DNA from: Alphaproteobacteria bacterium
Lineage (GTDB): Bacteria; Pseudomonadota; Alphaproteobacteria; Bin95
Length of the DNA stretch: 64,000 nt
Assembly (NCBI GenBank): GCA_965660545.1
Contig: CBFIAF010000004.1
Coordinates: forward strand, 76,655 to 140,654
Direction: 5' to 3'
Under the pieces are notes generated by a model, which did not search any database, was not told the DNA's origin, and saw only the letters and a program-made list of their open reading frames with translations. Both the position numbers and the translations under genes were made by a program. Shown here piece by piece: positions 40,375 through 54,024 of the stretch (the stretch's first letter is position 1; the number at the start of each line of letters is the position of its first letter).

Positions 40375-41040
40375 TTAGAGCTTAAACCCTGGCCCATCAA
40401 AACGCCCGACAGTGGCGATTTGATCAACCGGATTGCGACGAAGCTTGGTTAGCATTTTTACCGGCTTGCCCATCGGCACGACAGCGGCGACAGCATAATT
40501 ACTCGGCGCGCCGAGCAGCTTCTGCACCTCTGGCTCCATAGCCGCAGCGAGCGTTGTGATCGTGCCGCCAAAGCCCGCCTGCCGCGCGCAAAGCAGTACA
40601 TTCCAAACGAACGGATAAATCGACCCACCGCTAATTACGCCAACCCGGTCAAGGAACTGGTCCATTGAGGCAACAACAGAAAGGTCCACCATAAACACCA
40701 GCACAACATCCGCCTTACGGAATGAATCCGTCAAATGGGTTGCTGGCTCTGTCGCTGCGATCTTAGCATCGGAAACTTTTGTTGGGTTAATGGTATTCCA
40801 GGGGCTTTCGCCATTCTTGACCTGGGCCGTGTAGCGTTTCGCCGCTGGGGCAGCCAGTTGGGCGAGTGCCTCACGAGTTTCAGCATCCCGCACGATGACG
40901 ACACGATTTCCTTGACGATTGCCGCCGGACGGCGCGAACCGGGCGTTATCCAGAATATCGAACAGCACAACATCGGGGAGCGATTCGCCCGTGAATTCGC
41001 GCGCCGAAAAGGTCATGCGCATTACATCATTCAGTTCCAT
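40375..41040 (-). CDS. Nitroreductase family protein
   Basis: NAD(P)H nitroreductase fold motifs ([19 protein letters not shown]). AAGGGG RBS before the ATG at 41040. Confidence 0.7.
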
Positions 41041-41053
41041 GGCGATTGCCCCC

Positions 41054-41782
41054 TTAAGGATATTTGCAGCGGTCCGCCGACACGACAATAAAACCGCGCC
41101 GACCTGTTACGATATTAAAGCGGAATTCCGTTGCTCCCATGACAACCCCATGTGACAATGGCAGCAGACCTTTGGCTTCACTGGTCTTACCGCCGACACG
41201 TGTGAACTTGATTGTGACTGGTTTTGCCGGATCAAACCAACCTTGTGGCCGACCGTCGCCGCCCAGCGCGGCCTTGCCTGTCCCGGTGACGACGATTGCG
41301 GACTTCGCGAACCCAATCCAGTTGTTCTTGCCCCGCTTGCCCTGCGTGCGGAGAATGAAGCGCTTGGTGATGGGGCGATTCTGACACTCATTCGCTGCCT
41401 TCGCCTCACGGATAACGAATGAGAGGCGTTTCGGCGGGACGCCGTTGTCCAGTTGCGATTGCAGCTGGCGAAACAATTCCTTCGCGTCCCCCGTCGGCAC
41501 ATCCTGCTCGTAACGGGCATTCCATTCAGCAACCTGAGTCTTAGAGCCACGAAGTTGGACGTTCAGGTTCTGATTCTCTGCGTCCAGGCTATTGAATTGG
41601 CCCTGTATCTCAGCCAGCTGCTCGCGCAGACTGCGCACTTCACGTTGTGCAAACGCAGTTCCTGTTTCATAGGCAAAGAAGCCTAGCAGCACCAGCGCGG
41701 TCAACGCGGCCGCAAACTTAACTAGCATCATCCGCCGTTTGCGCGTTTGGCGGCGGCGGCCTTCTCTTAATCCAACGGCCAT
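41054..41782 (-). CDS. Hypothetical membrane-anchored coiled-coil protein
   Basis: Basic N-terminus, one TM helix (LVKFAAALTALVLLGFFAY), then a long predicted coiled coil (REVRSLREQLAEIQGQFNSLDAENQNLNVQLRG...) and a C-terminal beta-rich domain. No recognisable family. Divergent from the cytochrome operon. Confidence 0.45.
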   Translation of the reverse strand: MAVGLREGRRRQTRKRRMMLVKFAAALTALVLLGFFAYETGTAFAQREVRSLREQLAEIQGQFNSLDAENQNLNVQLRGSKTQVAEWNARYEQDVPTGDAKELFRQLQSQLDNGVPPKRLSFVIREAKAANECQNRPITKRFILRTQGKRGKNNWIGFAKSAIVVTGTGKAALGGDGRPQGWFDPAKPVTIKFTRVGGKTSEAKGLLPLSHGVVMGATEFRFNIVTGRRGFIVVSADRCKYP

Positions 41783-41862
41783 ACAGTAATTGCTTTCTCA
41801 GCTAAGTTTTTGCGTCCAGCCATCGAACGACCGCCAGATCGCAACGCTTTTCCTGAAGTTCT

Positions 41863-42105
41863 ATGCCGCATCTTTCCTCCACGCAAGAAATTGGGAGATC
41901 ATCCATGCAGCAAGCCGGTGAAGCCCTTTCGGGAAGTGACCAACGCCGATGTGAGCGTTATCCTTGCCCCGATTATGCCGAAGCGTTCTTCGCCAGCCAT
42001 TGGCGTACTTGTGGTGTCGCCGATATTTCAGCAGGCGGTACCTTGCTCGAAACCACGAACCGCCTGATGTGGGTTATATTATCACGCTTTTCGTCTAATA
42101 TGTGA
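41863..42105 (+). CDS. PilZ-signature small ORF (possibly truncated/frameshifted c-di-GMP receptor)
   Basis: Contains RxxxR (RRCER) and, 23 residues later, an exact DxSxxG (DISAGG), the diagnostic c-di-GMP-binding motifs of PilZ domains. The ORF ends only 21 residues later; a +1 frame continues to about 42288 with plausible PilZ C-terminal strands. Confidence 0.45.
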   Translation: MPHLSSTQEIGRSSMQQAGEALSGSDQRRCERYPCPDYAEAFFASHWRTCGVADISAGGTLLETTNRLMWVILSRFSSNM

Positions 42106-42413
42106 CAGAAATGCTTGGTGTTTTCATTCGGCACACGGGCGATTGATTCCTGCTTCCTTCGATCTGTTGCCGCTCACCGAGCACCACAAGGTTCTCAGTG
42201 TCAGCCTGTGGCAAGACGCCCGCTATCTGCTTAGCGCCCGCCTTTGGAGCCCGCTAAGGGTCACCGATAGCGGTTTTTTTGCATAGGCGGAAACTATCAT
42301 CGTCGCCGATGGGAACAAAAAATTCCTCATGTATTTCTCCTATCAAGCTTCCCCATGTAATACTCCGATGCTAAAGTAGCGCTTCGTCAAACCCACACTC
42401 AGGGAAACGCCCA

Positions 42414-43334
42414 ATGGTAAAGTCTATAATACAATTTATATTTGCAGCCGCCCTCGCGCTGACCGCGGTTATCGCGCAGCCCGCTACTGCGGCAAATCTT
42501 GGCCCCAAAACCTGCCAAGAATGCCATCGTGCTGAGTACGAGGTGTGGAAAGGCTCCGCGCACTTCAAGGCCTATCGTGGCGCGCACAAGCACAAAAATG
42601 CAAAAGCGATTGCGGCGGCTTCCGGCACTGGCAAATCCATGCGGAAAAACAAAACCTGCATGACTTGTCATTACACGGTAATTGGCAGCAAGGCGAGAGC
42701 GAAAGCTGGCCCGTCCTGCGAGAGCTGCCACGGCGGCGCTTCCAAGTGGGTAAAAATCCATAATGACCTTGGCGCTGGCGTGAAATCATCTGCGGATGAG
42801 TCTGCTGCCCACAAAAAGTCACGCCTGGCTGCAGCACAAAAAGCCGGCATGATCCATTCATCAATGGTTTACGACATCGCTGAGAACTGTAATTCCTGCC
42901 ACACCATGCAGAAGATTGACCCTGCAATGGCCGGTAAGCTGATCGATGCAGGCCATCCAATCAATGGTAGTTATGAGCTGGTGAAGTATAGCCAGGGTCA
43001 AGTTCGCCATCGCTTCTATCCGCCGAACATCACCGAGAACCAGAAAATGAACAAGGCGGAACTATCCCGCATGTTCTTGACCGGCCACGCTGCTGGTCTC
43101 GTCTATGCGACGAAGGTTCTGGAAAGTGCTGATAATGCCAAGTACAAAGCAGCTATGGAACAACGCGTCGTTGATGCAAAGAAAGCAATCGGCGCTGCTA
43201 AGGGTTCTATACCGGCTGCGGGCGCACTTTTGTCCTCACCGACGGAAGCAAACGCCAGGAAGTTCGTCGCGGCGTTGCAGGGCAAGGACCTGTCCGGTGC
43301 TGTCGGCGGCATGTTGCCCTCTGAGTACAAATAG
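42414..43334 (+). CDS. Periplasmic tetraheme cytochrome c (cytochrome c554-like CxxCH...W..S.H type)
   Basis: Signal peptide (MVKSIIQFIFAAALALTAVIAQPATAA). Four CxxCH motifs (CQECH, CMTCH, CESCH, CNSCH). First gene of the 7-gene operon. Confidence 0.85.
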   Translation: MVKSIIQFIFAAALALTAVIAQPATAANLGPKTCQECHRAEYEVWKGSAHFKAYRGAHKHKNAKAIAAASGTGKSMRKNKTCMTCHYTVIGSKARAKAGPSCESCHGGASKWVKIHNDLGAGVKSSADESAAHKKSRLAAAQKAGMIHSSMVYDIAENCNSCHTMQKIDPAMAGKLIDAGHPINGSYELVKYSQGQVRHRFYPPNITENQKMNKAELSRMFLTGHAAGLVYATKVLESADNAKYKAAMEQRVVDAKKAIGAAKGSIPAAGALLSSPTEANARKFVAALQGKDLSGAVGGMLPSEYK

Positions 43335-43458
43335 GGCGATACTATTCGCGAATCCTGAGGCGGTAATTAATGGATGTGTGCTGGGGTGGGCATGCCTTCA
43401 TTGATACTAGCCAAAGGCCCGCGGTTTTCCGCATCACGCGCTCCAGGGGGATGGCGCT

Positions 43459-45081
43459 TTGGCCTTAGCGACAAGATTAGCGCGTCCGCAACGTTGGGAC
43501 CGTCCGTTCGATCCAGGTATGACTGCGGCAGATTTGCAACACCTAAAACTTGATCCGGTTGTCGCCGCAATTGATGCAGACGCGTTCCCAGGGACTATTC
43601 CACTTGACGGCATTCTAGCTAACGATTCGCGGGTCATTCGTTACAAAGCCGGTGAAATCGTCGTTCGCGAAGGCGATTACGGTAATTCCGCATTTCTTAT
43701 TATGTCCGGCGCTTGCGACGTTGTCGTAAATCCGCCGCTGACTGATGCTCAGCTTGGCCGTCAAACTGAAGCGCCAGCTAGCATTGCGCGCGCGATTTCA
43801 CAACTCTGGAAGCGCACTGTCGTGCCGGAAGTTCGTGACGTCAGCCGCTATGGCGATATCGCCGTCACAGAGACAGATCATCAGGCCGTTTTTCTGCAAG
43901 ATTATGGCATTGTGCTTGGCGGGCGCAGCTTGCCGCGCCTTGGCGCGCAGCAAATGTTTGGTGAGTTGGCCGCTCTGGGCCGTACCCCCCGCGCGGCAAG
44001 CGTCGTTTGTGTCGAAGACGCAGAGGTGCTTGAGATTCGCTGGCAGGGCCTGCGGGAGCTTCGTCGGTTTGATGCCGGCTGGCGCCGCCAGATCGACACC
44101 AACTACCGCGCCAATGCGCTGATCTCGCACCTGCAGGACACGCTGCTGTTCGATGGTCTGTCCGACGACGCGCTCCAATCCATCGCAGACGCGACATTGT
44201 TTGAAACTTATGGCTCCTTTGACTGGAGTTCTTCGTTCCAGCGCGCCGAAAGCGATGCGCGCCTGGATACAGAACCCGTCATTGCGCGTGAAGGCGAATA
44301 TCCAGATGGCCTCTTGCTTATCCGTGCAGGATTTGGCCGCGTTTCTGTGCGCCAAGGGGCAGCAGAACGCACACTGACTTACTTATCTGCTGGCGATCAT
44401 TTCGGCTTGAGCGAGCTTTATGCTGGCTGCAAGGGCGGTGGATCACCGATGGAAGCAACACTCCGCGCGGTCGGTTACGTGGACGCCCTACGTGTGCCAA
44501 CTAAGGTACTCGAAGAGCATGTCTTCCCGCGCATGAACACAGCGCCGGATAGCTTCCTACAGTTTGCAGCCCGCCCCCTTGCAGATGATTCACTGCAGGA
44601 ATGGGCAATCGAAGAGCGTTTCATCAACGGCACCATGGCGATGCTGATTGATTTGGATAGATGCGTGCGCTGTGACGATTGCGTGCGGGCCTGTGCGTCC
44701 ACCCACGGCGGCAACCCTCGTTTTGTCCGCCACGGCAAGATCAATGACCATTGGATGGTCGCCAATGCCTGTATGCATTGCTCTGACCCTGTCTGTATGA
44801 TCGGCTGCCCAACGGGCGCTATTCACCGGACGCAGGCGGGCGGCTCTGTTGTCATCAATGACGACAGCTGCATCGGGTGCGGTACATGCGCCAATTCCTG
44901 CCCTTATAATAATATCCGCCTCGTCGAAATTCGGGACCTGTCTGGAGCCCCGGTTCAGGACGAAGCAACCGGGCAGCCCATTCGTAAGGCGACAAAATGT
45001 GATCTTTGCGCAGGTATTCCTGGTGGCCCCGCCTGTGAGCGCGCCTGCCCGCACGGCGCTCTCCAGCGCGTTGATTTTTAG
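43459..45081 (+). CDS. Cytoplasmic protein with two cyclic-nucleotide-binding (CAP-effector-like) domains fused to a four-cluster [4Fe-4S] ferredoxin module (HybA/NrfC/PsrB-like)
   Basis: N-terminal two-thirds carry two cNMP-binding-like domains (FLIMSGACDVV; GELAALGRTPRAASVVCVEDAEVLEI). C-terminal 150 aa has four Cys clusters: CVRCDDCVRAC, CMHCSDPVCMIGCP, CIGCGTCANSCP, CDLCAGIPGGPACERACP. No signal/TAT peptide and no HTH. Confidence 0.75.
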   Translation: MALATRLARPQRWDRPFDPGMTAADLQHLKLDPVVAAIDADAFPGTIPLDGILANDSRVIRYKAGEIVVREGDYGNSAFLIMSGACDVVVNPPLTDAQLGRQTEAPASIARAISQLWKRTVVPEVRDVSRYGDIAVTETDHQAVFLQDYGIVLGGRSLPRLGAQQMFGELAALGRTPRAASVVCVEDAEVLEIRWQGLRELRRFDAGWRRQIDTNYRANALISHLQDTLLFDGLSDDALQSIADATLFETYGSFDWSSSFQRAESDARLDTEPVIAREGEYPDGLLLIRAGFGRVSVRQGAAERTLTYLSAGDHFGLSELYAGCKGGGSPMEATLRAVGYVDALRVPTKVLEEHVFPRMNTAPDSFLQFAARPLADDSLQEWAIEERFINGTMAMLIDLDRCVRCDDCVRACASTHGGNPRFVRHGKINDHWMVANACMHCSDPVCMIGCPTGAIHRTQAGGSVVINDDSCIGCGTCANSCPYNNIRLVEIRDLSGAPVQDEATGQPIRKATKCDLCAGIPGGPACERACPHGALQRVDF

Positions 45082-45092
45082 GGGCACCAAGA

Positions 45093-45923
45093 ATGATCGT
45101 CCGAACAGTCAACAGCGTCCGGCCCTTCGGCTACACCCTGGCCGCCATCGGTGCCGCTGTGATCGCCAGTCTCGCTTATTATTCGCATCAGGAACACCTG
45201 AAGCTCAGTGACGCCACCTTCGTCACGGGTTGGGTATTGCTGACAGCCATGGTCTCCCTAGCGCTTTTCAACATCCGCAAGCGTCTTTCCATGATGTCAA
45301 TGGGTAGGGCAGCTTATTGGCTTGCGCTGCACGTTGTCGTTGGCCTATTCGCTGTCGGAATGTTCATTGTCCACACAGGTGGCATGTGGGCCACAGGCTT
45401 CTATGAGCAAGTGATGGCTGGATTGTTTTGGGCGACGGCCCTGTCAGGCGTCTTCGGCTGGCTATATCAGCGCGCGATGCCAAGGCGCCTTACACGCATT
45501 GGCTATGAAGTCGTTTATGAACGAATCCCGGCTGAAATTGCCGCCCTTCGCGAGGAAGCTGAAGAAGCCACCCTTGAAGGCGTAGGTGCTAGCGGCGAAC
45601 CAACCCTCGGCCGCTTCTATTCAGAAACCATGCAGGACTTCTTCCGTCGGCCGCGCTTTATGTTAAGCCACCTCTTTGGTGCAGGTGCAGCCCAACAGTG
45701 GGTTGACCTCCGGTTCCGCACGGTGCGCGGGCTAGTTGGCTCACAAGAAGAACCCGCCCTTGCCCGACTTGAAGCTGCCGCAAGACGCAAACTCTCTATA
45801 GACGCTCATTACGCCATTCAACGCTCCTTGAAGCTTTGGGTGGCGGTCCACGTCGTGCTATCTGCAGCGATGTTAACGCTTGCAGTATGGCACCTCATCC
45901 TGGTGCATGTGTACGCCCGATGA
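45093..45923 (+). CDS. Polytopic inner-membrane protein with conserved intramembrane histidines (candidate b-type heme/quinone-interacting subunit)
   Basis: 276 aa with about 5 predicted TM helices. His pairs sit inside helices (HVVVGLFAVGMFIVH; VHVVLSAAMLTLAVWHLILVH), with a roughly 120 aa soluble loop. The gene is 11 nt after the FeS gene and its stop overlaps the next start (ATGA). Confidence 0.55.
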   Translation: MIVRTVNSVRPFGYTLAAIGAAVIASLAYYSHQEHLKLSDATFVTGWVLLTAMVSLALFNIRKRLSMMSMGRAAYWLALHVVVGLFAVGMFIVHTGGMWATGFYEQVMAGLFWATALSGVFGWLYQRAMPRRLTRIGYEVVYERIPAEIAALREEAEEATLEGVGASGEPTLGRFYSETMQDFFRRPRFMLSHLFGAGAAQQWVDLRFRTVRGLVGSQEEPALARLEAAARRKLSIDAHYAIQRSLKLWVAVHVVLSAAMLTLAVWHLILVHVYAR

Positions 45924-48028
45924 CTGAAGACAAAAATCGCTTCGCCCACGATCGATCACCCTATGAGCGCCCGAATTTTCCTTTCCGGTGCGGCAGGGAG
46001 GCAGCCTTTGGCAAACCGTGCCCACGCGGCCCGAGCGCTGGCGGTAATTGCCAGGGGATCTCGGACTGCACGCCATTCCGGACACGCAAGATCGTAACAA
46101 ACACTGAAACCGGTGAAGAAACAGAGACCCAGCGTTGGGAATGCCGCCGCCCGCAACATGCTGGCGGCCCCTGTGCTGAAGGTCCACGGCCAGACGGCAC
46201 ATGCTCTTGCATCCATCCGCCATGTGCACCTAAGCTGACTATCCGGCGTCAGCGCGGCCGCTGGGCAATGCTTGCAGTTGCCGCAATGGTAGCCATGGTA
46301 TTGGCTTTTGTCGGCGCTGCTGGCGGTATCATTGGCCCTAAACCAGATGCAAACGGCATTCTTAGTCATGTTGGCTGGCCGAGTTCAGTCAACCCTGGTC
46401 CGCTTTCCGGCAAGCATGAACAATTCACGGCCAAAGACGGCTGTATTTCATGCCATGTCGGCCATTCAGACACATTAACAGGCTGGGCTGGTGCAATATT
46501 CGAGCGCACCACTATTTCTGAGTCCTGCGTCTCGTGCCACAGCTTCGGAGAGAAACAAGCTAATTCCGACCCTAAAGCCCAATCGCCAATGGCATTCGCC
46601 GCCCATAACACGAAATTCCCGAACCGCACGAATGCCCCAACAGCATCGTGCACGGGCTGCCACACGGAACATAAAGGTGTGGGTGCATCGATCACGCCGA
46701 TGGATGATGGCCAGTGCTCTGCATGCCACACCACCAAGTTCGACAGTTTCTCCAAATCCCATCCGGCGTTTGGGACAAATTTCCCGCATGAAAGTGCACG
46801 AACCATCAAGTTTCAGCATGGCAAGCACCTAGAAACGCATTTTGTAGACCAGCGCTATATCGATAGAGCGCCAAAGAATGGCTGCATCTCCTGCCATACA
46901 GACCAAGTTGATGGGCGTTTGCTACCGGGCAGTTTTGAGAATGGCTGTGCCGCATGTCATGAACTTGCGATTAAAGAACAGGGAATGGTCGTCTTCGGCC
47001 TTCCTGAATTGAGTGACCCTGAATTGACTGCAGAAGCCCGTGACTCATGCGGCTTTCCTGTGCCACAGCGTGAGCCGGCCCGTGCGACCCTTGAAGCCCT
47101 GGCTGAGGCACTTCCGACAATGCAGGCGCTTGGTGAAAACGCCGAGTCTGGCAACCTGAATGGCGTCATGACTGCAGTTGAGGCCTTAAGTGAGGCCCAG
47201 ACCGCGATTGCCGAAGCGCGGGATGAGCTTGCAGAGGCTGTCGACATGTCAGAAGCCGTTTCCCTTGATTCGCTCTCCCCGATCGCAGCATTCCTTCTGG
47301 CTGTTCCGGCTGATGATGCAGATGAATATAGCGAAGCAGCAGCAGCCTTCCTGATTGCCGCTGCCGCCGACGGGCAGGTCCCGCTTGCCGAAGCAATCGA
47401 CGCTAAGGGTGGTGATGCAACCGCGCTGCTGGCAGGCCTTTCACCCGAGTTAGTGACGGAAGTTACTTGCGCTTGGGCCGCAAACACGGAATATGAACCT
47501 AAGCAAGACCCTGAACCGGGCGCTGGCTGGGCTGCGCAAGAGCTGCAAGTGTCTTATCTGCCAACAGGCCATGCGGATGCTGTGACCAAGGGATGGATTG
47601 CACTTGGTCTAGCAAATCGTGGCAGTCAAGATGAAGGTGTCGAAGCTTTTGCTGACCTCGTGCTCAGTGCGGGCGACGGGCCGGGTCGTTGCTTTAAGTG
47701 TCACGTCGCACCAGCGGCAGATGCTGAAAAACAAGTCGTACAATGGGCTATTCCACGCGCAGATGTTCGCCCATTCACAACTTTCAATCATGATCCGCAC
47801 TTAAATGTACTAGATCAGGGAGCCGGATGTGCGACATGCCATAGTCAGTTGGAGCCGGGCGCAACCTTGGCTGATGGGCAATCTCGCCCAGGGCCGCATG
47901 CAAACGACTTCAAGCCGATCGATCAAGCAACTTGCAAAGATTGTCACCGCCCGGGCGCGGTTCGGCAGGATTGCGCACTTTGCCACCGCTACCATAGCAA
48001 TCCATCCATCCGGAAACGGACGTTGTGA
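45920..48028 (+). CDS. Membrane-anchored multiheme cytochrome c (10 CxxCH) with Cys-rich N-terminal region
   Basis: Ten CxxCH motifs arranged 6+4, split by a roughly 200 aa Ala/Glu-rich low-complexity linker. One hydrophobic helix (WAMLAVAAMVAMVLAFVGAAGG) sits after a roughly 110 aa N-terminal region containing 9 Cys (C-x10-C-x8-C-x5-C ... C-x9-C-x7-C-x-C-x4-C). The start at 45920 is inferred from the ATGA overlap. Confidence 0.75.
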   Translation: MTEDKNRFAHDRSPYERPNFPFRCGREAAFGKPCPRGPSAGGNCQGISDCTPFRTRKIVTNTETGEETETQRWECRRPQHAGGPCAEGPRPDGTCSCIHPPCAPKLTIRRQRGRWAMLAVAAMVAMVLAFVGAAGGIIGPKPDANGILSHVGWPSSVNPGPLSGKHEQFTAKDGCISCHVGHSDTLTGWAGAIFERTTISESCVSCHSFGEKQANSDPKAQSPMAFAAHNTKFPNRTNAPTASCTGCHTEHKGVGASITPMDDGQCSACHTTKFDSFSKSHPAFGTNFPHESARTIKFQHGKHLETHFVDQRYIDRAPKNGCISCHTDQVDGRLLPGSFENGCAACHELAIKEQGMVVFGLPELSDPELTAEARDSCGFPVPQREPARATLEALAEALPTMQALGENAESGNLNGVMTAVEALSEAQTAIAEARDELAEAVDMSEAVSLDSLSPIAAFLLAVPADDADEYSEAAAAFLIAAAADGQVPLAEAIDAKGGDATALLAGLSPELVTEVTCAWAANTEYEPKQDPEPGAGWAAQELQVSYLPTGHADAVTKGWIALGLANRGSQDEGVEAFADLVLSAGDGPGRCFKCHVAPAADAEKQVVQWAIPRADVRPFTTFNHDPHLNVLDQGAGCATCHSQLEPGATLADGQSRPGPHANDFKPIDQATCKDCHRPGAVRQDCALCHRYHSNPSIRKRTL

Positions 48029-48036
48029 GGATTAAG

Positions 48037-49809
48037 ATGATGGAAGAGAGAAAGATGGAATTTGGAATCCGCCCCTTGGGGCGCCGCCTTCTAATTGCTG
48101 GCGCTTTCGCCGCTGCGGTATTTGGCATGCCAATTACAGCAGTAGCAGCCGAAAAAGAAGATCCGCATGCGGATCTTATGGCCGAGGAAAGCTACCCAAC
48201 AGCCGCCCAATGTGGTGCCTGTCACACCCAGGTCTATCGCGAATGGGCGTCGTCTAACCACGCATACGCATCGATTTCGCCGATGTTCCACAAGTTCGAG
48301 CAGAAGATTAATGATCTCTCGAGCGGCACCATCCGAGGCTTCTGCGTACGGTGCCATCAACAGATCGGCACGCAGCTCAATGAACGCCGCGACCTCCCGC
48401 TTTGGGAACGCAATCAGATTTCACGCGAAGGCATTTCCTGCGTGACGTGCCACCGCGTCCGTGAAGAATTCGGCAAGGTCAACGGCGAACGCCGGATCAT
48501 CCCAGGCCAGGTCTACACGCCTGTCAGCGGTGTTGGCGATGGCAAAAAGCTAAAGGAAATCATTGAGAACCGTAGCGAATATCGTGTTGCGGTTAGCGAA
48601 AAGGAACGCGGGGCCCAGATTCACACGGGCGTTTACAAGTTCCCACAGATTTCTAAGTCAGAATTCTGTGTGTCTTGTCACCAGGTCGCTGTGAACCCAG
48701 GCATCAAGCTTGAAGTTGTTTGGGAGCAGTATAGAAACTCCCCAGCAGCCGCTAATGGCGTCACGTGTCAGGATTGCCATATGGGCAAAGTGCCAGGCCG
48801 GGCTGACGGTTATGCAACCGGGCCCGTCGCAATCGTTAATGGTGAAGAAATCAATCCGGACCGCAGGCACTCCAACCATGCCTTCTACGGCCCTGGCTAC
48901 CCAATTGCTCATCCTGGCATCTTCCCACACAACCCAGATGCAGCTGAAATTCCCATCGAAGACTGGCTGGAATTCGACTACCGCTCTAAGTGGGGCTCGG
49001 AAGAATTTGAAGAGAAAGTCGCCAACGGCGAGATTGATGAAGACAGCCTGCCAGACGCATGGTCCGATTCAGTTGACCGTGAGGAAGCTTGGGAAATCAT
49101 CCAGGAGAACGTCGGACTTCTGGAAGAAAAACGCGACCTTCGCCGTCAAGTGATGGAAAATGGTTCTCGTCTTGATGGCCCGTTCTTCGCTAGCGCGCCA
49201 AAACAAGGGTCCTCCCTCAGCTTTGACATCAAACTGACCAACACAGATGACGGCCATAACCTGCCGTCTGGTTCTCTCGGTGCCCAGCCTGAAATCTGGC
49301 TGAATGTTGCTGTCGTATCGCCCAGCGGCAAGACAGTATGGGAATCTGGTTACGTTGATGGGAATGGCGATATGGCCGACATTCACTCCCTAGAGGTAAG
49401 AGCGGGCAAAATCGAATATGATGACCAGCTTTTCAACTTGCAAACCAAGTTTCTATTCACGAACGTTAAGGGGACTGAACGCGAATGGTATCTGCCAATA
49501 AATATCGATATCGATCAGCTTCCATTCATCCGCCCAGCAAACGTGCCGACGACTATCCTAAACCATGCGCCATTTATCCGCATGGAAGGTCGTTCGATTC
49601 CACCACTTGGGTTTCGCAACGCTAGCTACACCGTGCCGGCAGATGCGTTGACGGAAAAAGGTACTTACAAAATGGCCGTCCGACTGCGGAGCCGCGCCGA
49701 ACCGATCTACTTCATGCGGTTCGTCGATTCGACGCCGGAAATGGAAGAAGCCATGAACAGCTGGATGCTTGATTTCCATTCCTACACCGTGGAATTTGAA
49801 GTCAACTGA
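48037..49809 (+). CDS. Secreted pentaheme cytochrome c with large heme-free C-terminal domain
   Basis: Signal peptide. Five CxxCH (CGACH, CVRCH, CVTCH, CVSCH, CQDCH), all in the first roughly 280 aa. A roughly 300 aa C-terminal domain has no heme motif. GAGGA RBS before the ATG at 48037; the ORF track starts at a GTG at 48025 that overlaps the upstream stop. Confidence 0.8.
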   Translation: MMEERKMEFGIRPLGRRLLIAGAFAAAVFGMPITAVAAEKEDPHADLMAEESYPTAAQCGACHTQVYREWASSNHAYASISPMFHKFEQKINDLSSGTIRGFCVRCHQQIGTQLNERRDLPLWERNQISREGISCVTCHRVREEFGKVNGERRIIPGQVYTPVSGVGDGKKLKEIIENRSEYRVAVSEKERGAQIHTGVYKFPQISKSEFCVSCHQVAVNPGIKLEVVWEQYRNSPAAANGVTCQDCHMGKVPGRADGYATGPVAIVNGEEINPDRRHSNHAFYGPGYPIAHPGIFPHNPDAAEIPIEDWLEFDYRSKWGSEEFEEKVANGEIDEDSLPDAWSDSVDREEAWEIIQENVGLLEEKRDLRRQVMENGSRLDGPFFASAPKQGSSLSFDIKLTNTDDGHNLPSGSLGAQPEIWLNVAVVSPSGKTVWESGYVDGNGDMADIHSLEVRAGKIEYDDQLFNLQTKFLFTNVKGTEREWYLPINIDIDQLPFIRPANVPTTILNHAPFIRMEGRSIPPLGFRNASYTVPADALTEKGTYKMAVRLRSRAEPIYFMRFVDSTPEMEEAMNSWMLDFHSYTVEFEVN

Positions 49810-49888
49810 TTGGGGATCGCCTGCGGCGCGCCAAGCTGCCAAAGAGAACAGTTAAGGCGCGCCGCAGGCGAACGAGGAGAATAGAGGC

Positions 49889-51415
49889 GTGACACCAAGT
49901 TTTCTAAAGATGACCGGGCGCATTGCAATGGCGACAGCGGCTTCCGCACTGGCGATGATGGTCGCCACTGGCGGCCCTGCATATGCGGCGAGTGCCCATG
50001 ACGACAGTCCGCGCAAGATGGATCCTAATGTCAAACCGTCAGAGCATGACTCTGATGTCTTCAAGGCGGATCCAACATACGAAGAGAAAGTGTATGACGC
50101 TGAGCGCCAACTCGAAATCTATGGCGGCAAGCGCAACATTGAGGAGCCACGCCCGATCCTAGAAGTTGGTCGTCCGCAATATGTCGAAGGTCCTTTCGAC
50201 GAAGGCATTAATGTAATTGGCGAAAAGAACCTTTTGTTCCCATCGTTTTCAGTTTTTGGTGACGTCCGTACAGCGGTAGCCGCGAATGACGTTGGCGGTG
50301 ATGTTGTGTACGAGTTTGCCAACCGCCTGAACCTGGACCTCGACCTTAAGCTAACCGCCACAGAACGTGTTCACGGCTTCTTCCGCCCGATCGACGAGAA
50401 CGGTAAGTTCATAGGATATCGGACCGGCGATAAGAGGGGCAATAATGGCCGTGACGGTAAGCTCGATGCAAACCCAGAAACATTATTCTTTGAAGGTGAT
50501 ATTGGTGCCATATATGGCGGGTTAGCAGACGAATACACAACCTTTGACCTGCCAATCGCATTTGGTTTGACACCCTTCGTCATGCAGAATGGGCTTTGGG
50601 TTGATGAGGCCTTTGTTGGGGGCGGCATATCACTCGCTGCAATGAACAGTCGTACACTTGATATCACAAACATGGACATCACCTTCTTTGGTGGTTTCGA
50701 TGAAATCGATTCACCGGCATTCGTTGGCCAGGACGGTGTCCTAGATACAGACGACGTATCAATTTATGCCGTAGCCGCTTTCGTCGATTGGTTCGAAGGC
50801 TATTCTGAGTTCGGTATCGGCTATGTCGACGGAAGAGAGCAACTCAACGATATTGACTATTTCAACTTTACCGGTGCCTATACGTCACGGTATGGCGGCT
50901 GGCTCTCCAACTCCGTCAGGCTATTTGGCGCTGTGGGTCAAGATACAAACGGCCGTGCTAAAACGGCCGATGGCTTTGCCTTACTCATAGAAAACTCTTT
51001 GATCACGTCCAAGCCAGATGTCTTTGTTCCCTATTTCAATGGCTGGGTTGGTATCGATAAGCCGCAATCCCTCGCACGCAACAACGGCGGGCTATTGAAG
51101 AACACCGGCATCACGTTCGAGAACGACGGCATGACCTCTTTTCCGACGCTGGATGATACCGCACAAGACACATTCGGTGGTGCCATCGGCGTCAACTATC
51201 TGTTCAGTCTAGACCAGCAGCTCGTGGTTGAAGCGTCTACGGTTCAAAGACTTGATACTGCCTCACCTGCTCAGGGTGGTCAGTATGCTGTTGGCTTCCG
51301 CTATCAGATCCCAGTCACGAACCGGGTTATCCTGCGTACAGACGGTATCTACGGCATTCGGGAAAGCCAGGAAGACATTGGCGGCGTTCGCTTCGAGCTG
51401 CGCGTTAAATTCTAA
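49889..51415 (+). CDS. Outer-membrane beta-barrel protein (porin-like; candidate cytochrome conduit)
   Basis: Signal peptide (MTGRIAMATAASALAMMVATGGPAYAASA), alternating amphipathic beta-strand pattern, Gly/aromatic-rich, and a C-terminal ...RFELRVKF ending in Phe, the OMP sorting signature. Confidence 0.65.
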   Translation: MTPSFLKMTGRIAMATAASALAMMVATGGPAYAASAHDDSPRKMDPNVKPSEHDSDVFKADPTYEEKVYDAERQLEIYGGKRNIEEPRPILEVGRPQYVEGPFDEGINVIGEKNLLFPSFSVFGDVRTAVAANDVGGDVVYEFANRLNLDLDLKLTATERVHGFFRPIDENGKFIGYRTGDKRGNNGRDGKLDANPETLFFEGDIGAIYGGLADEYTTFDLPIAFGLTPFVMQNGLWVDEAFVGGGISLAAMNSRTLDITNMDITFFGGFDEIDSPAFVGQDGVLDTDDVSIYAVAAFVDWFEGYSEFGIGYVDGREQLNDIDYFNFTGAYTSRYGGWLSNSVRLFGAVGQDTNGRAKTADGFALLIENSLITSKPDVFVPYFNGWVGIDKPQSLARNNGGLLKNTGITFENDGMTSFPTLDDTAQDTFGGAIGVNYLFSLDQQLVVEASTVQRLDTASPAQGGQYAVGFRYQIPVTNRVILRTDGIYGIRESQEDIGGVRFELRVKF

Positions 51416-51463
51416 TCACGATCGTATTGCTAGCCAAAATGGCACCGAGATTGGGGAAGAACG

Positions 51464-52729
51464 ATGGATAATTTGGCGAACTATGTCGCCATAGGTGCAG
51501 CCGGGCTGCTGGGCCTTTACATTTTGTCTCTGCTGATGGGCTCGCTCCGTCAGCAGAGCCAAATGGCGCGGCATTATGAGGAACAATCACAGCTATTCCG
51601 CGCACGTGCGGAAGGCTTGCAGAGGATCCGTGCTGAAGAGATCGAGAAAACCCAAAACACCTGGGCAGGCCTTCGGAAATTCAAAGTTGCCCGTAAGATC
51701 AATGAGATCACAGATTGCCACTCCATCTACCTTGAACCTCATGACGGTCGGCCCCTACCGCCGTTTGAGCCAGGCCAGTTTCTAACGTTCAAGTTTGCTG
51801 TGCCCGATCAGCCTAGCGACGTAATACGTTGCTACTCCCTGTCAGACGCACCTGGCCGTGACTACTACAGGATTACCGTCAAGAAGGTGCCACCGCCCCG
51901 TGGCAAGCCTGAAATAGCACCTGGTGTGTCCTCCACCTTCGTAAATGAAGTCTTGAATGAAGGCGATATAATTGATGTACGTGCGCCCAATGGCGGCTTC
52001 TATCTGAAGCGTGAACATAAACGTCCAGTCGTCCTAATCGGTGGCGGCGTTGGCATCACACCAGTGCTCAGCATGCTGAACTACATTGTGGAGCATGAGC
52101 CGCAGCGGGAAACATGGTTCTTCTTTGGGGCGCCCAATAAAGCCGGCCATATTATGAAGGATCACCTAGCCCAAATTGCTGCGGAAAATCCTAATATCCG
52201 CATGAACATTTGCTACAGCGACCCATCAGATGACGATGTGTTTGGGGAAGATTACGACCATCACGCCCGCGTTTCCGTAGAGCTGTTCAAGAAAGTCCTG
52301 CCTTCTAACAATTTCGAATATTACTTCTGCGGCCCACCGCCAATGATGAATGCGCTTGATGCGGACCTCAAAGCTTGGGGCGTACCAGAAGCCGATATTC
52401 ACTCTGAAGGCTTTGGCCCTGCTTCAGTTAAGAAGCCCAAACCACCTGCTGTAGAAGGTGCTGCAGAATTAGCATCTGTATCGGTAACGTTTGCTAAATC
52501 TGGCAAGACATTGGATTGGACGCCTGCTGCTGGAACAATTCTTGATTTGGCGGAAGCAAACGGTGTTGATGTTGCTTCGGGTTGCCGGGCCGGCAGCTGT
52601 GGTACTTGCCTCACCGCCGTTATAGAAGGCGATGTGGATTACGCAACGCCGCCAGACGCTCCGATCGAAAATGGCTCTTGCCTCGCGTGTGTCGGCACCC
52701 CGAAAGGGCCAATCAAGATAAACGCCTAA
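51464..52729 (+). CDS. Membrane-anchored FNR-family flavoprotein reductase with C-terminal plant-type [2Fe-2S] ferredoxin domain
   Basis: N-terminal TM helix (VAIGAAGLLGLYILSLLMGS), FAD motif RCYSLSD, NAD(P) motif GGGVGITP, C-terminal CRAGSCGTCL...CLACV 2Fe-2S motif. Last gene of the operon. Confidence 0.75.
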   Translation: MDNLANYVAIGAAGLLGLYILSLLMGSLRQQSQMARHYEEQSQLFRARAEGLQRIRAEEIEKTQNTWAGLRKFKVARKINEITDCHSIYLEPHDGRPLPPFEPGQFLTFKFAVPDQPSDVIRCYSLSDAPGRDYYRITVKKVPPPRGKPEIAPGVSSTFVNEVLNEGDIIDVRAPNGGFYLKREHKRPVVLIGGGVGITPVLSMLNYIVEHEPQRETWFFFGAPNKAGHIMKDHLAQIAAENPNIRMNICYSDPSDDDVFGEDYDHHARVSVELFKKVLPSNNFEYYFCGPPPMMNALDADLKAWGVPEADIHSEGFGPASVKKPKPPAVEGAAELASVSVTFAKSGKTLDWTPAAGTILDLAEANGVDVASGCRAGSCGTCLTAVIEGDVDYATPPDAPIENGSCLACVGTPKGPIKINA

Positions 52730-52752
52730 ACCAAGTTCGATCTGAAAAGATT

Positions 52753-52790
52753 ACGGTCCGCAACCAACTGGTTTCGGGCCGTATTTTTTT
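52753..52790 (+). terminator. Rho-independent terminator closing the cytochrome operon (possibly bidirectional)
   Basis: Stem ACGGTCCG...CGGGCCGT followed by ATTTTTTT, 24 nt after the reductase stop. The convergent CoA-transferase gene ends at 52822. Confidence 0.6.
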
Positions 52791-52821
52791 GAATGCCAAT
52801 CTAGTCAGGCAAGGGCAGAGG

Positions 52822-54024
52822 CTAAACGATCCCACTTGCCTTCAGTGATGCAATATCCTCACTGGAAAGGTTGAGGACTTCACAAAGGATTTCATCCGTG
52901 TGATGCCCAATAGGCGGACCGGCATGGGCAATCCGCCCAGGCGTGCCCGTTAGATTAGGAGAAACCCCAGGCATTGGTATGTCGCCCAATTCCTCATCCG
53001 GAACGGTCACAATGTTCTTGCGGGCCTCAAAATGGGGATCTTCAGCGATATCAGCGGCGGTATAGATCCCGCCGAAGGGTACATTGCCGCCAACAAGCCG
53101 CGCTTCGATCTCCGCGAAGGCGTGCGCGCTAATCCAATCTCCCAGCAGCGCTTCAAGTTCATCAGCCCGCTCAATTCTGGCAGCGCTTTGGGCGTAGCGG
53201 GGATCTGTCGCAAGTTCTGGCATGCCAATGGCGTCTGCCAATCTTTTAAACACGCCATCACCACCAGCCGCAATCTGGACGTAGCGCCCATCTTTGGTTT
53301 CGAATGTCCCGGCGGGAGAGAATGTAGGATTGCGGTTGCCAATTCGCTCCCGGACCTCCCCATTCATCATATACTTGGAGATTAGGTCTGCTGTAATGCG
53401 GAATGGCGCTTCGTAGAGGCCAAGGTCAATCATCTGCCCCACTCCCCCCTGCGCATCACGCTGATAGAGCGCTAACATCGCTGAAAGCGCACCAAAAGTG
53501 CCGGTATTATAGTCTGCCGTCGGAAAAGCAGGGCGAACGGGGAAGCGATCTGGGAACCCGGTTGGGTACATATAGCCCGAGAAACCAAGCGCAATCCGAT
53601 CATAGCCCGATCGCTTGGAGTATGGCCCCGTTTGCCCATAACCAGACACGCGAACCATAATCAGACGTGGATTAACGGCCTTTAGGTCTTCCCAGCCTAT
53701 ATTCCATCGCTCCAACGTGCCCGGCGTGAAGTTCTCCATCACGATGTCTGCAGTCGCGGCCAGGTCCCTTAGAATCTTCTGGCCTTCAGGAACCCGCAGA
53801 TTGAGCGTGATCGATTTCTTGTTGCGGCCCTCGATTAGCCAGTTTGGTGGTCGACCAGCTGCACCATCAACAGGCGTGCCACGCAACGCATCGCCGCGAC
53901 CAGGCTGCTCGACTTTAATGACCTCAGCGCCAAAATCGCCAAGCAACGTGGCACCGAACGGTCCAGCAATCAGCGTGCCGATGTCCAGCACACGCACACC
54001 GGCAAGTGGCAAGGGCGTCGTCAT
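52822..54024 (-). CDS. CaiB/BaiF family III CoA-transferase
   Basis: N-terminus MTTPLPLAGVRVLDIGTLIAGPFGATLLGDFGAEVIKVEQP is the family signature. 400 aa. Confidence 0.85.
   Translation of the reverse strand: MTTPLPLAGVRVLDIGTLIAGPFGATLLGDFGAEVIKVEQPGRGDALRGTPVDGAAGRPPNWLIEGRNKKSITLNLRVPEGQKILRDLAATADIVMENFTPGTLERWNIGWEDLKAVNPRLIMVRVSGYGQTGPYSKRSGYDRIALGFSGYMYPTGFPDRFPVRPAFPTADYNTGTFGALSAMLALYQRDAQGGVGQMIDLGLYEAPFRITADLISKYMMNGEVRERIGNRNPTFSPAGTFETKDGRYVQIAAGGDGVFKRLADAIGMPELATDPRYAQSAARIERADELEALLGDWISAHAFAEIEARLVGGNVPFGGIYTAADIAEDPHFEARKNIVTVPDEELGDIPMPGVSPNLTGTPGRIAHAGPPIGHHTDEILCEVLNLSSEDIASLKASGIV

Follow-up and report, generated by a model that had tools for sequence, protein, structure and literature searches.

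A pentaheme cytochrome with an immunoglobulin-like domain and its outer-membrane channel partner in an alphaproteobacterial ptd gene cluster

The stretch of alphaproteobacterial DNA analysed here (64,000 nucleotides of GenBank assembly GCA_965660545.1, hereafter the window) carries at 48037-49809, on the + strand, a gene for a pentaheme cytochrome with a long heme-free C-terminal tail, followed by a gene for an outer-membrane barrel (49889-51415, +). Judged by architecture and synteny, on which the match rests, these two genes and five neighbors, seven + strand genes at 42414-52729, are the ptdDEFGABC cluster already described by Elbon, Stewart and Glass (bioRxiv 10.1101/2023.11.21.568154); the cytochrome is PtdA and the barrel PtdB. 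The locus itself is a further copy of that architecture, and the new element is evidence for a single module made up of PtdA and PtdB.

The ptd cluster was named from marine oxygen-deficient-zone Alphaproteobacteria (UBA11136), and in abundant Alphaproteobacteria of these zones ptd counts among the genes with high transcription (bioRxiv 10.1101/2023.11.21.568154). Its published parts are PtdA, a pentaheme cytochrome that carries a beta-sandwich at its C-terminus; PtdB, a porin; PtdC, an oxidoreductase using flavin adenine dinucleotide (FAD) and nicotinamide adenine dinucleotide or its phosphate (NAD(P)); PtdD, a tetraheme cytochrome; PtdE, a cyclic nucleotide monophosphate (cNMP)-binding protein that has a pair of 4Fe-4S clusters; PtdF, a transmembrane 'ferric reductase-like' protein; and PtdG, a decaheme cytochrome (bioRxiv 10.1101/2023.11.21.568154). 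Counterparts of the seven components, that of PtdF being a putative one, are present in the window, where they form a single + strand block in the order D-E-F-G-A-B-C. Text searches directed at ptd, or at comparable combinations of a porin with multiheme cytochromes, returned nothing beyond this preprint; the porin-dodecaheme complexes of Ca. Manganitrophaceae, which surfaced in another search, are a different system.

The ptdA open reading frame starts with ATG and is translated into 590 residues, with an in-frame GTG at 48025 as an alternative start that would add four more. Residues 1-38 (48037-48150, +) read as a Sec-type signal peptide with a hydrophobic 19-mer at residues 18-36 and a cleavage site, judged by eye, between ITAVAA and EKED; there is no lipobox cysteine in this leader, the first cysteine of the protein being residue 59. 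Five CxxCH motifs follow: CGACH at residue 59 (48211-48225, +), CVRCH at 103 (48343-48357), CVTCH at 135 (48439-48453), CVSCH at 211 (48667-48681) and CQDCH at 244 (48766-48780). Together with a match of a PtdA-family profile, over profile positions 61-263, to the structure 5ZE8, they mark a pentaheme domain at residues 39-281 (48151-48879, +). Pfam and NCBIfam matches to PtdA are restricted to residues 50-255, among them a weak match of the heme part to the Pfam MtrC/MtrF domain II/IV, and the tail has none in either database.

A first-pass annotation of this gene, made by a model from the letters alone, had proposed that all five heme motifs lie in the first 280 residues and that an acidic, beta-rich, heme-free domain makes up the rest. 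The motifs do fall within residues 59-248. All ten cysteines of PtdA belong to them, and in residues 249-590 a motif scan detected neither a cysteine nor a CxxCK or Cx3-4CH variant, which means that the remainder holds no overlooked heme site. Its acidity is equally clear, with 53 D/E against 27 K/R in the last 310 residues as compared to 33 against 35 in the first 280. The beta-rich description holds for part of the tail: in the AlphaFold2 model (mean predicted local distance difference test score, pLDDT, 80; predicted template modeling score, pTM, 0.80), residues 377-590 (49165-49806, +) form an eight-stranded immunoglobulin (Ig)-like beta-sandwich, the heme-free domain proper, whereas residues 282-376 (48880-49164, +) are a connecting subdomain of coil and helices, including a long helix at 345-375.

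Conservation across the close clade is as high in the sandwich as around the hemes. The top 10-residue blocks of PtdA are 551-560 (0.99) and 411-420 (0.98), both in the sandwich and level in rank with the heme-motif blocks, and then 281-300 (0.96-0.97), the connecting subdomain holding the conserved block HAFYGPGYPIAHPGIFPHNP ahead of its acidic helices. After residue ~330 (around 49024-49030) lies an insertion hotspot: of 121 close homologs, 43 carry an insertion there, which spans as many as 171 alignment columns. Insertions at this point give rise to length classes of ~660 and ~742-762 residues (P0029, P0041 and others in our protein set). Some PtdA relatives also have long N-terminal extensions, which are low-complexity, rich in P, Q, A and S, and without Pfam domains.

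The best sequence match of PtdA in the PDB is 5ZE8, cytochrome c552 of Thermochromatium tepidum (phmmer E 1.4e-7 from the single sequence, 1.3e-19 from a 30-sequence profile), a homology that had been noted before (bioRxiv 10.1101/2023.11.21.568154). Identity to c552 is 17%. The heme domains are homologous, and the two-domain arrangement of heme part and Ig-like part is common to both proteins; c552, like PtdA, has five hemes and an H-x-x-P-T/S-G loop at the start of its C-terminal domain. It is shorter, at 435 residues, PtdA adding ~75 residues between the domains and ~47 inside the sandwich. A second protein of this fold is MccSep (ExtKL) of Geobacter sulfurreducens (9WT8), a periplasmic polysulfide-reductase selenoprotein with a five-heme alpha-helical 'cap' and an Ig-like 'stem' (bioRxiv 10.1101/2025.11.18.688581). 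Both c552 and ExtKL, with longer variants, have been placed in a proposed 'PHC' family (PMC11976967).

Hidden Markov model (HMM) alignment pairs PtdA residues 395-437 with '...RNLQ-PHAMPTGA...' of c552 and with residues 306-347 of MccSep, '...TN-HAGHSIPDGXPTP...', in which X is the selenocysteine Sec325. The PtdA loop G406-H407-N-L-P410-S-G412 (49252-49272, +) accordingly corresponds to MccSep's GHSIPDG and c552's PHAMPTG. G406, H407, P410 and G412 do not vary in a set of 30 relatives that reaches down to 30% identity, and a search with the tail by itself gave 299 clusters, nearly all of whose full-length representatives have GH..P; in the full-length relatives of this set, the sandwich always lies C-terminal to exactly five CxxCH motifs. 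The heme-free tail is the Ig-like half of the c552/MccSep fold, with a connecting subdomain peculiar to PtdA in front of it, and not an add-on binding module. The first-pass annotation had taken it to be analogous in role but not in sequence to extracellular cytochrome domains; instead, motif and fold make it homologous to the Ig-like domains of 5ZE8 and 9WT8. It had also named, as the finding that would count against its view, an Ig-like fold with no redox link. The fold is indeed Ig-like, but a redox link is there, since the invariant GHxxPxG loop corresponds to the heme-2 site of MccSep.

MccSep offers a guide to what this loop does. Its Ig-domain loop D323-G324-U325-P326 reaches the distal pocket of heme 2 and forms the active site; the substrate channel runs between the two domains; four of the hemes are bis-His, and Cys239 is the ligand of heme 2 (bioRxiv 10.1101/2025.11.18.688581). 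Neither catalytic residue is kept in PtdA. Alignment to 9WT8 places S413 at the position of Sec325 and L225/E226 at that of Cys239, E226 being conserved in 27 of 30 diverse relatives and cysteine occurring at positions 225/226 in none of them. No in-frame TGA that could encode selenocysteine is present in ptdA. At the L225/E226 position c552 does have a cysteine ('PLCQ'). The NCBIfam equivalog for ExtKL (NF040886) scores 35.8 bits against PtdA, below its cut-off of 250. Because the Sec and Cys of MccSep are replaced, PtdA should not be a polysulfide reductase, which leaves another substrate or electron transfer only. The setting differs too: the polysulfide/selenite reductase MccSep, a homotetramer, belongs to anaerobes, whereas carriers of Ptd are mostly aerobes.

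The histidines of PtdA bear on how its hemes are ligated. Outside the CxxCH motifs, H75 and H281 are present in all 30 relatives, H196 in 25, H292 in 24 and H44 in 23. Since MccSep has four bis-His hemes and the conserved non-motif histidines of PtdA come down to H75, H196, H281 and H407, we infer that His407 is a distal heme ligand supplied by the sandwich.

An alternative role would be that of an electron carrier only: all hemes bis-His, the Ig-like domain stabilizing the fold, mediating oligomerization (compare the tetramer of MccSep) or docking PtdA to the barrel, and catalysis lying elsewhere or a dissolved ion reacting at an exposed heme, as in Cyc2 of Fe(II) oxidizers. H75, H196, H281, H407 and H292 would be enough for five ligands, PtdA showed no catalytic-heme signature of the Cys, Sec, Lys or Tyr type, and the fusion to a small barrel described below parallels Cyc2. 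Against this, the candidate fifth ligands, H292 and H44, are the least conserved of the set, the most conserved blocks are sandwich loops that in MccSep line the active site, and in AlphaFold-based surveys PHC members (sPHC, lPHC) fall among the potentially catalytic cytochromes that have a pentacoordinate heme (PMC11976967). We regard a purely electron-carrying PtdA as a rather improbable alternative.

Two further elements of the sandwich fall within the ~47 residues that c552 lacks. The acidic loop D441-G-N-G-D445-M-A-D448 (49357-49380, +) has the form D-G-N-G-D-x-x-D and is conserved at D441 (30/30), D445 (28/30) and D448 (28/30); its motif resembles calcium- or metal-binding loops and could mark a Ca2+-type site. 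The second is an excursion at residues 473-517 (49453-49587, +), which the model predicts with low confidence (pLDDT <50 at 473-478, 487-497 and 499-517). Its conservation is 0.64-0.87, with R499 and R515 almost invariant, and it is a candidate interface.

The barrel gene announced by the first-pass annotation begins, as it had stated, 79 nucleotides after the ptdA stop codon (49809 to 49889). It encodes a protein of 508 residues that starts with a signal peptide and ends in ...RVKF. Pfam, NCBIfam and PDB sequence searches gave no match for it, and its structural model is an outer-membrane barrel of ~18 strands (pLDDT 88). In structural comparison, the PtdB model scored 27.1 against OpdQ/OccK6, 26.3 against OccAB3, 25.8 against Campylobacter MOMP, 23.9 against AlgE, 23.0 against chitoporin and 20.8 against maltoporin, as compared to 14.3 against OprP and 12.7 against MtrB. 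PtdB thus models as an OprD/AlgE-like substrate-type channel and not as an MtrB-like sheath. The mature protein is strongly acidic (73 D/E vs 40 K/R), which, together with the acidic PtdA tail, is a weak hint of a cationic or metal substrate rather than an oxyanionic one.

Mature PtdB starts with a conserved acidic extension of ~80 residues ahead of the first strand (residues 34-115, 49988-50233), modeled with moderate confidence and invariant at P62, Y69, Y78, K81, P89 and Y98; it may act as a plug or in docking. We also considered the motif at residues 58-81 as a docking peptide that takes the place of the linker in fused proteins. This idea is unsupported, as alignments to some of the fusions reach upstream into this region, starting at PtdB residue 18, 39 or 41.

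To place the pair in a wider context, we drew on a scan of one genome per species, with gene neighborhoods taken from the best 80 loci. PtdA relatives occur in at least 548 species genomes. The best 80 loci, sampled from the sea, lakes, groundwater and soil, belong to Alpha-, Gamma- and Betaproteobacteria, Planctomycetota, Verrucomicrobiota, Nitrospirota, Gemmatimonadota and others; among the matches listed, the closest is a locus in an uncultured alphaproteobacterial metagenome-assembled genome, at 95% identity. Carriers are mostly aerobic heterotrophs, methylotrophs and nitrite oxidizers. Elbon et al. reported ptd from marine or high-salinity habitats only, whereas the relatives found here extend beyond saline habitats.

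Pairing of the two genes is close to absolute. A PtdB homolog lies downstream of ptdA on the same strand in 77 of the 80 loci, and the other three stop at contig edges. The remaining components are found near ptdA less regularly: PtdD in 57 loci, PtdG in 54, PtdF in 50, PtdE in 30, and PtdC in 24. The loci follow one of three layouts, namely the full same-strand D-E-F-G-A-B-C block; a divergent G-F-D group with A-B, without E and C; and A-B alone. Around A-B-only loci of a Marinobacter (L074) and a Geminicoccaceae (L005), the neighbors are unrelated (formate-dehydrogenase-like, GGDEF, caspase-like and carbon monoxide dehydrogenase-like genes) and give no functional hint.

In one clade the two proteins are fused. 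P0155, of 1098 residues, consists of a PtdA homolog (39% identity) joined to a PtdB homolog (29%, E 1e-26). Its gene (L081:6001-9297) has no internal stop in translation table 11, the other frames are closed at the junction, and an identical copy (L082:1030-4326) comes from a second, independent assembly of the same sample. Searching with P0155 returned 48 cluster representatives (among P0155 and P0396-P0450) of 990-1291 residues at 43-85% identity to it, several on contigs of 4-7 Mb. Both halves are present in all 48, nearly all of which end in ...KF, ...RF or ...LF, and the junction is a variable, acidic, Pro/Ala-rich linker of 35-90 residues. The open frame, the closed alternatives, the two agreeing assemblies and the 48 diverged clusters rule out a gene-calling artefact. 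The literature searched, including a survey of outer-membrane multiheme cytochromes, holds no mention of a PtdA-PtdB fusion. In one representative, P0445, the linker retains a fossil stretch resembling a signal peptide.

Although ptdA and ptdB are separate genes in the window, the fusion argues for a physical association of their products in unfused systems as well, and PtdA and PtdB are one functional unit. The first-pass annotation was right to treat the tail as a real, conserved domain and the barrel as a relevant neighbor. The fusion also speaks to location. An outer-membrane barrel with an even number of strands has its N-terminus in the periplasm, so a PtdA joined to that end lies on the periplasmic side.

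These observations bear on the role that the first-pass annotation had offered for the tail, a surface-exposed module binding a substrate or mineral, like the domains of MtrC and OmcA. The tail is heme-free, acidic, beta-rich in the sandwich and encoded next to a barrel gene, as such a module might be. However, PtdA has a Sec signal and no other secretion signal or lipobox, its tail is homologous to the Ig-like domain of the soluble or periplasmic c552 and MccSep, and the fused clade tethers it to the periplasmic end of the barrel; a folded, heme-loaded protein of 60 kDa would not be expected to traverse 18 strands. An extracellular or mineral-binding role is very unlikely. Equally improbable is that PtdA polymerizes into a cytochrome filament, an idea that follows from the proposed kinship of the c552 fold with the archaeal nanowire AvECN, the small pentaheme cytochromes and AvECN having a heme arrangement and a beta-hairpin in common (PMC11976967). 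PtdA keeps the fifth, branching heme and a large Ig-like domain, Pfam detects no filament-assembly genes in the ptd cluster, and obligate pairing with a barrel, with fusion in 48 clusters, is incompatible with a free subunit.

An MtrAB-type conduit deserves more weight. Elbon et al. suggested it from the porin and the several multiheme cytochromes (bioRxiv 10.1101/2023.11.21.568154). In such a conduit PtdA and PtdB, with PtdG or PtdD, would deliver electrons across the outer membrane to electrodes or to minerals of insoluble Fe(III)/Mn(IV), and the tail of PtdA would be docked in the barrel or pass through it. MtrAB(C) does resemble ptd in having a barrel gene beside multiheme cytochrome genes, the A-B pairing is invariant, and the excursion at residues 473-517, conserved yet poorly predicted, might be an element for insertion. 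But MtrAB(C) comprises a barrel of ~26 strands sheathing a rod-like decaheme cytochrome and a surface lipoprotein cytochrome, and Ptd shows neither, the barrel gene having no rod-like decaheme partner beside it. PtdA is a globular two-domain protein of ~60 kDa rather than a rod; the cluster lacks an extracellular or lipoprotein cytochrome, since PtdA has no extra cysteine, the PtdD leader has none and PtdG is anchored by a transmembrane helix; and aerobic heterotrophs, methylotrophs and nitrite oxidizers make up most of the carriers. An 18-strand channel cannot sheath a cytochrome as MtrB does MtrA, which weakens the mineral-conduit reading further, and we consider it unlikely.

Two other known systems offer parallels. 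For the fused clade, the parallel in function is Cyc2, which also carries a cytochrome on the N-terminus of a small outer-membrane barrel and deals with dissolved species only. Cyc2 is a monoheme protein whose porin is smaller, with 16 strands, whereas PtdA-PtdB fusions have five hemes, an Ig-like domain and an 18-strand barrel, and no sequence relationship was found between Cyc2 and PtdA or PtdB. For the PtdA-PtdB pair in general, the closest parallel in function is the ext cluster of Geobacter, in which the porin-like ExtI is encoded with the periplasmic ExtKL and is required for selenite and tellurite reduction (PMC5877670, PMC6148476). MccSep and PtdA agree in being periplasmic pentaheme proteins with an Ig-like domain, a GH-x-x-P-x-G loop and an outer-membrane barrel gene in the same cluster.

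Because PtdA keeps the architecture of MccSep and not its catalytic residues, the barrel is of a substrate type and a fused clade exists, the model shifts from a mineral-respiring conduit to a channel-coupled periplasmic redox enzyme. On balance we lean towards a Sec-exported, periplasmic pentaheme PtdA whose Ig-like half donates His407, docked on PtdB and wired inward by the other Ptd proteins. For the docking geometry, the direction of electron flow and the substrate, we infer the following course. PtdA would sit at the periplasmic mouth of the PtdB channel, held there by a covalent tether in the fused clade. The residues after His407 would lie where MccSep has Sec325, facing heme 2 in the interdomain cleft, and the cleft around heme 2 and loop 406-420 would meet a soluble species admitted through PtdB and exchange electrons with it. 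PtdD, with four hemes, and the membrane-anchored PtdG, with ten, would pass electrons to or from the inner membrane, and PtdF, a putative di-heme b protein, may carry them within it. Where present, PtdE (Fe-S clusters, cNMP-regulated) and PtdC (NAD(P)H, FAD and 2Fe-2S) would provide the link to cytoplasmic NAD(P)H.

Several points weigh against this channel-coupled redox enzyme. Elbon et al. state that Ptd function "remains completely unknown" (bioRxiv 10.1101/2023.11.21.568154). A whole-model Foldseek search listed generic sandwiches only among its top 50 and not 5ZE8. The class of the PtdB barrel is read from a predicted structure. Heme 2 might be open, or it might have a ligand such as His292; should all five hemes be bis-His, PtdA may do no more than carry electrons. 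Finally, MccSep acts on oxyanions, whereas PtdB and the PtdA tail are acidic, so the MccSep analogy may not reach as far as the type of substrate.

More tentatively, PtdA-PtdB might be a previously unrecognized outer-membrane redox module, a c552/MccSep-fold enzyme mounted on its own 18-strand channel, at whose mouth a dissolved extracellular species is oxidized or reduced and which interchangeable Ptd modules wire to quinol or NAD(P)H; we put this forward as a possibility about which we are doubtful. Given the acidic channel and tail, the species handled by such a module may be a metal cation. A redox enzyme with its own channel would, if borne out, amount to a widespread envelope electron pathway, present in at least 548 species, mostly aerobes, with a chemistry unlike that of Mtr conduits and of MccSep. 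The system is spread across Pseudomonadota, Planctomycetota, Verrucomicrobiota, Nitrospirota and others, and includes named cultured carriers in which the model is testable. Among the best 80 loci (L001-L080), relatives come from the cultured Hyphomicrobium sp. 2TAF46, Marinobacter sp. CHS3-4 and Kordiimonadales bacterium IMCC3096 as well as from metagenome-assembled genomes of Lake Baikal, groundwater, soil and wastewater.

The remaining genes of the cluster in the window supply the candidate inward path. ptdD (42414-43334, +) encodes an exported, c554-like tetraheme cytochrome of 306 residues, with four CxxCH motifs, an N-terminal signal-like segment and a match to Pfam Cytochrome_C554 (E 2.9e-13). 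ptdE (43459-45081, +) encodes a cytoplasmic protein of 540 residues with cyclic-nucleotide-binding domains (Pfam cNMP_binding, E 2.1e-24, in three stretches) and 4Fe-4S dicluster motifs (Fer4 families, residues 432-535), in which neither a transmembrane segment nor a signal peptide was found. ptdC (51464-52729, +) encodes a membrane-anchored FAD/NAD(P) oxidoreductase of 421 residues with a C-terminal 2Fe-2S ferredoxin domain (Pfam NAD_binding_1, E 1.3e-20; Fer2, E 3.9e-12) and a hydrophobic helix at residues 8-26.

PtdF (45093-45923, +; 276 residues) is an integral membrane protein with hydrophobic segments at residues 41-59, 75-93 and 248-266. It has no Pfam or NCBIfam match, and its 'ferric reductase-like' label was not reproduced by Pfam. 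His80/His94 and His253/His267 form pairs 14 residues apart within hydrophobic helices (H-x13-H), a pattern by which PtdF may be a di-heme-b transmembrane electron carrier. ptdG (45920-48028, +) encodes a membrane-anchored decaheme cytochrome with ten CxxCH motifs, a transmembrane helix at residues 116-134 (a hydrophobic 19-mer) and a periplasmic ten-heme part. The mechanically called frame starts at TTG 45836, the likely start being ATG 45920, which overlaps the ptdF stop. Its first 115 residues (45920-46264), ahead of the transmembrane helix, are Cys-rich and would be cytoplasmic; they are a possible binding site for a metal or Fe-S cluster, and Pfam gave no match over residues 1-137.

A promoter and terminator scan of 41700-53000 gave signal no better than shuffled sequence. 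Upstream of ptdD, a short open reading frame of 80 residues (41863-42105, +) matches PilZ weakly (E 9e-4; at 20 bits it misses the cut-off of 22.5 bits) and has RxxxR and DxSxxG-like motifs; it may encode a cyclic di-GMP-binding protein, beside a cluster that has a gene for a cNMP-binding protein as well, or be a chance reading frame. The cluster is bordered by two apparently unrelated genes on the - strand, one for a nitroreductase-family protein at 40375-41088 and one for a family III CoA-transferase at 52822-54024.

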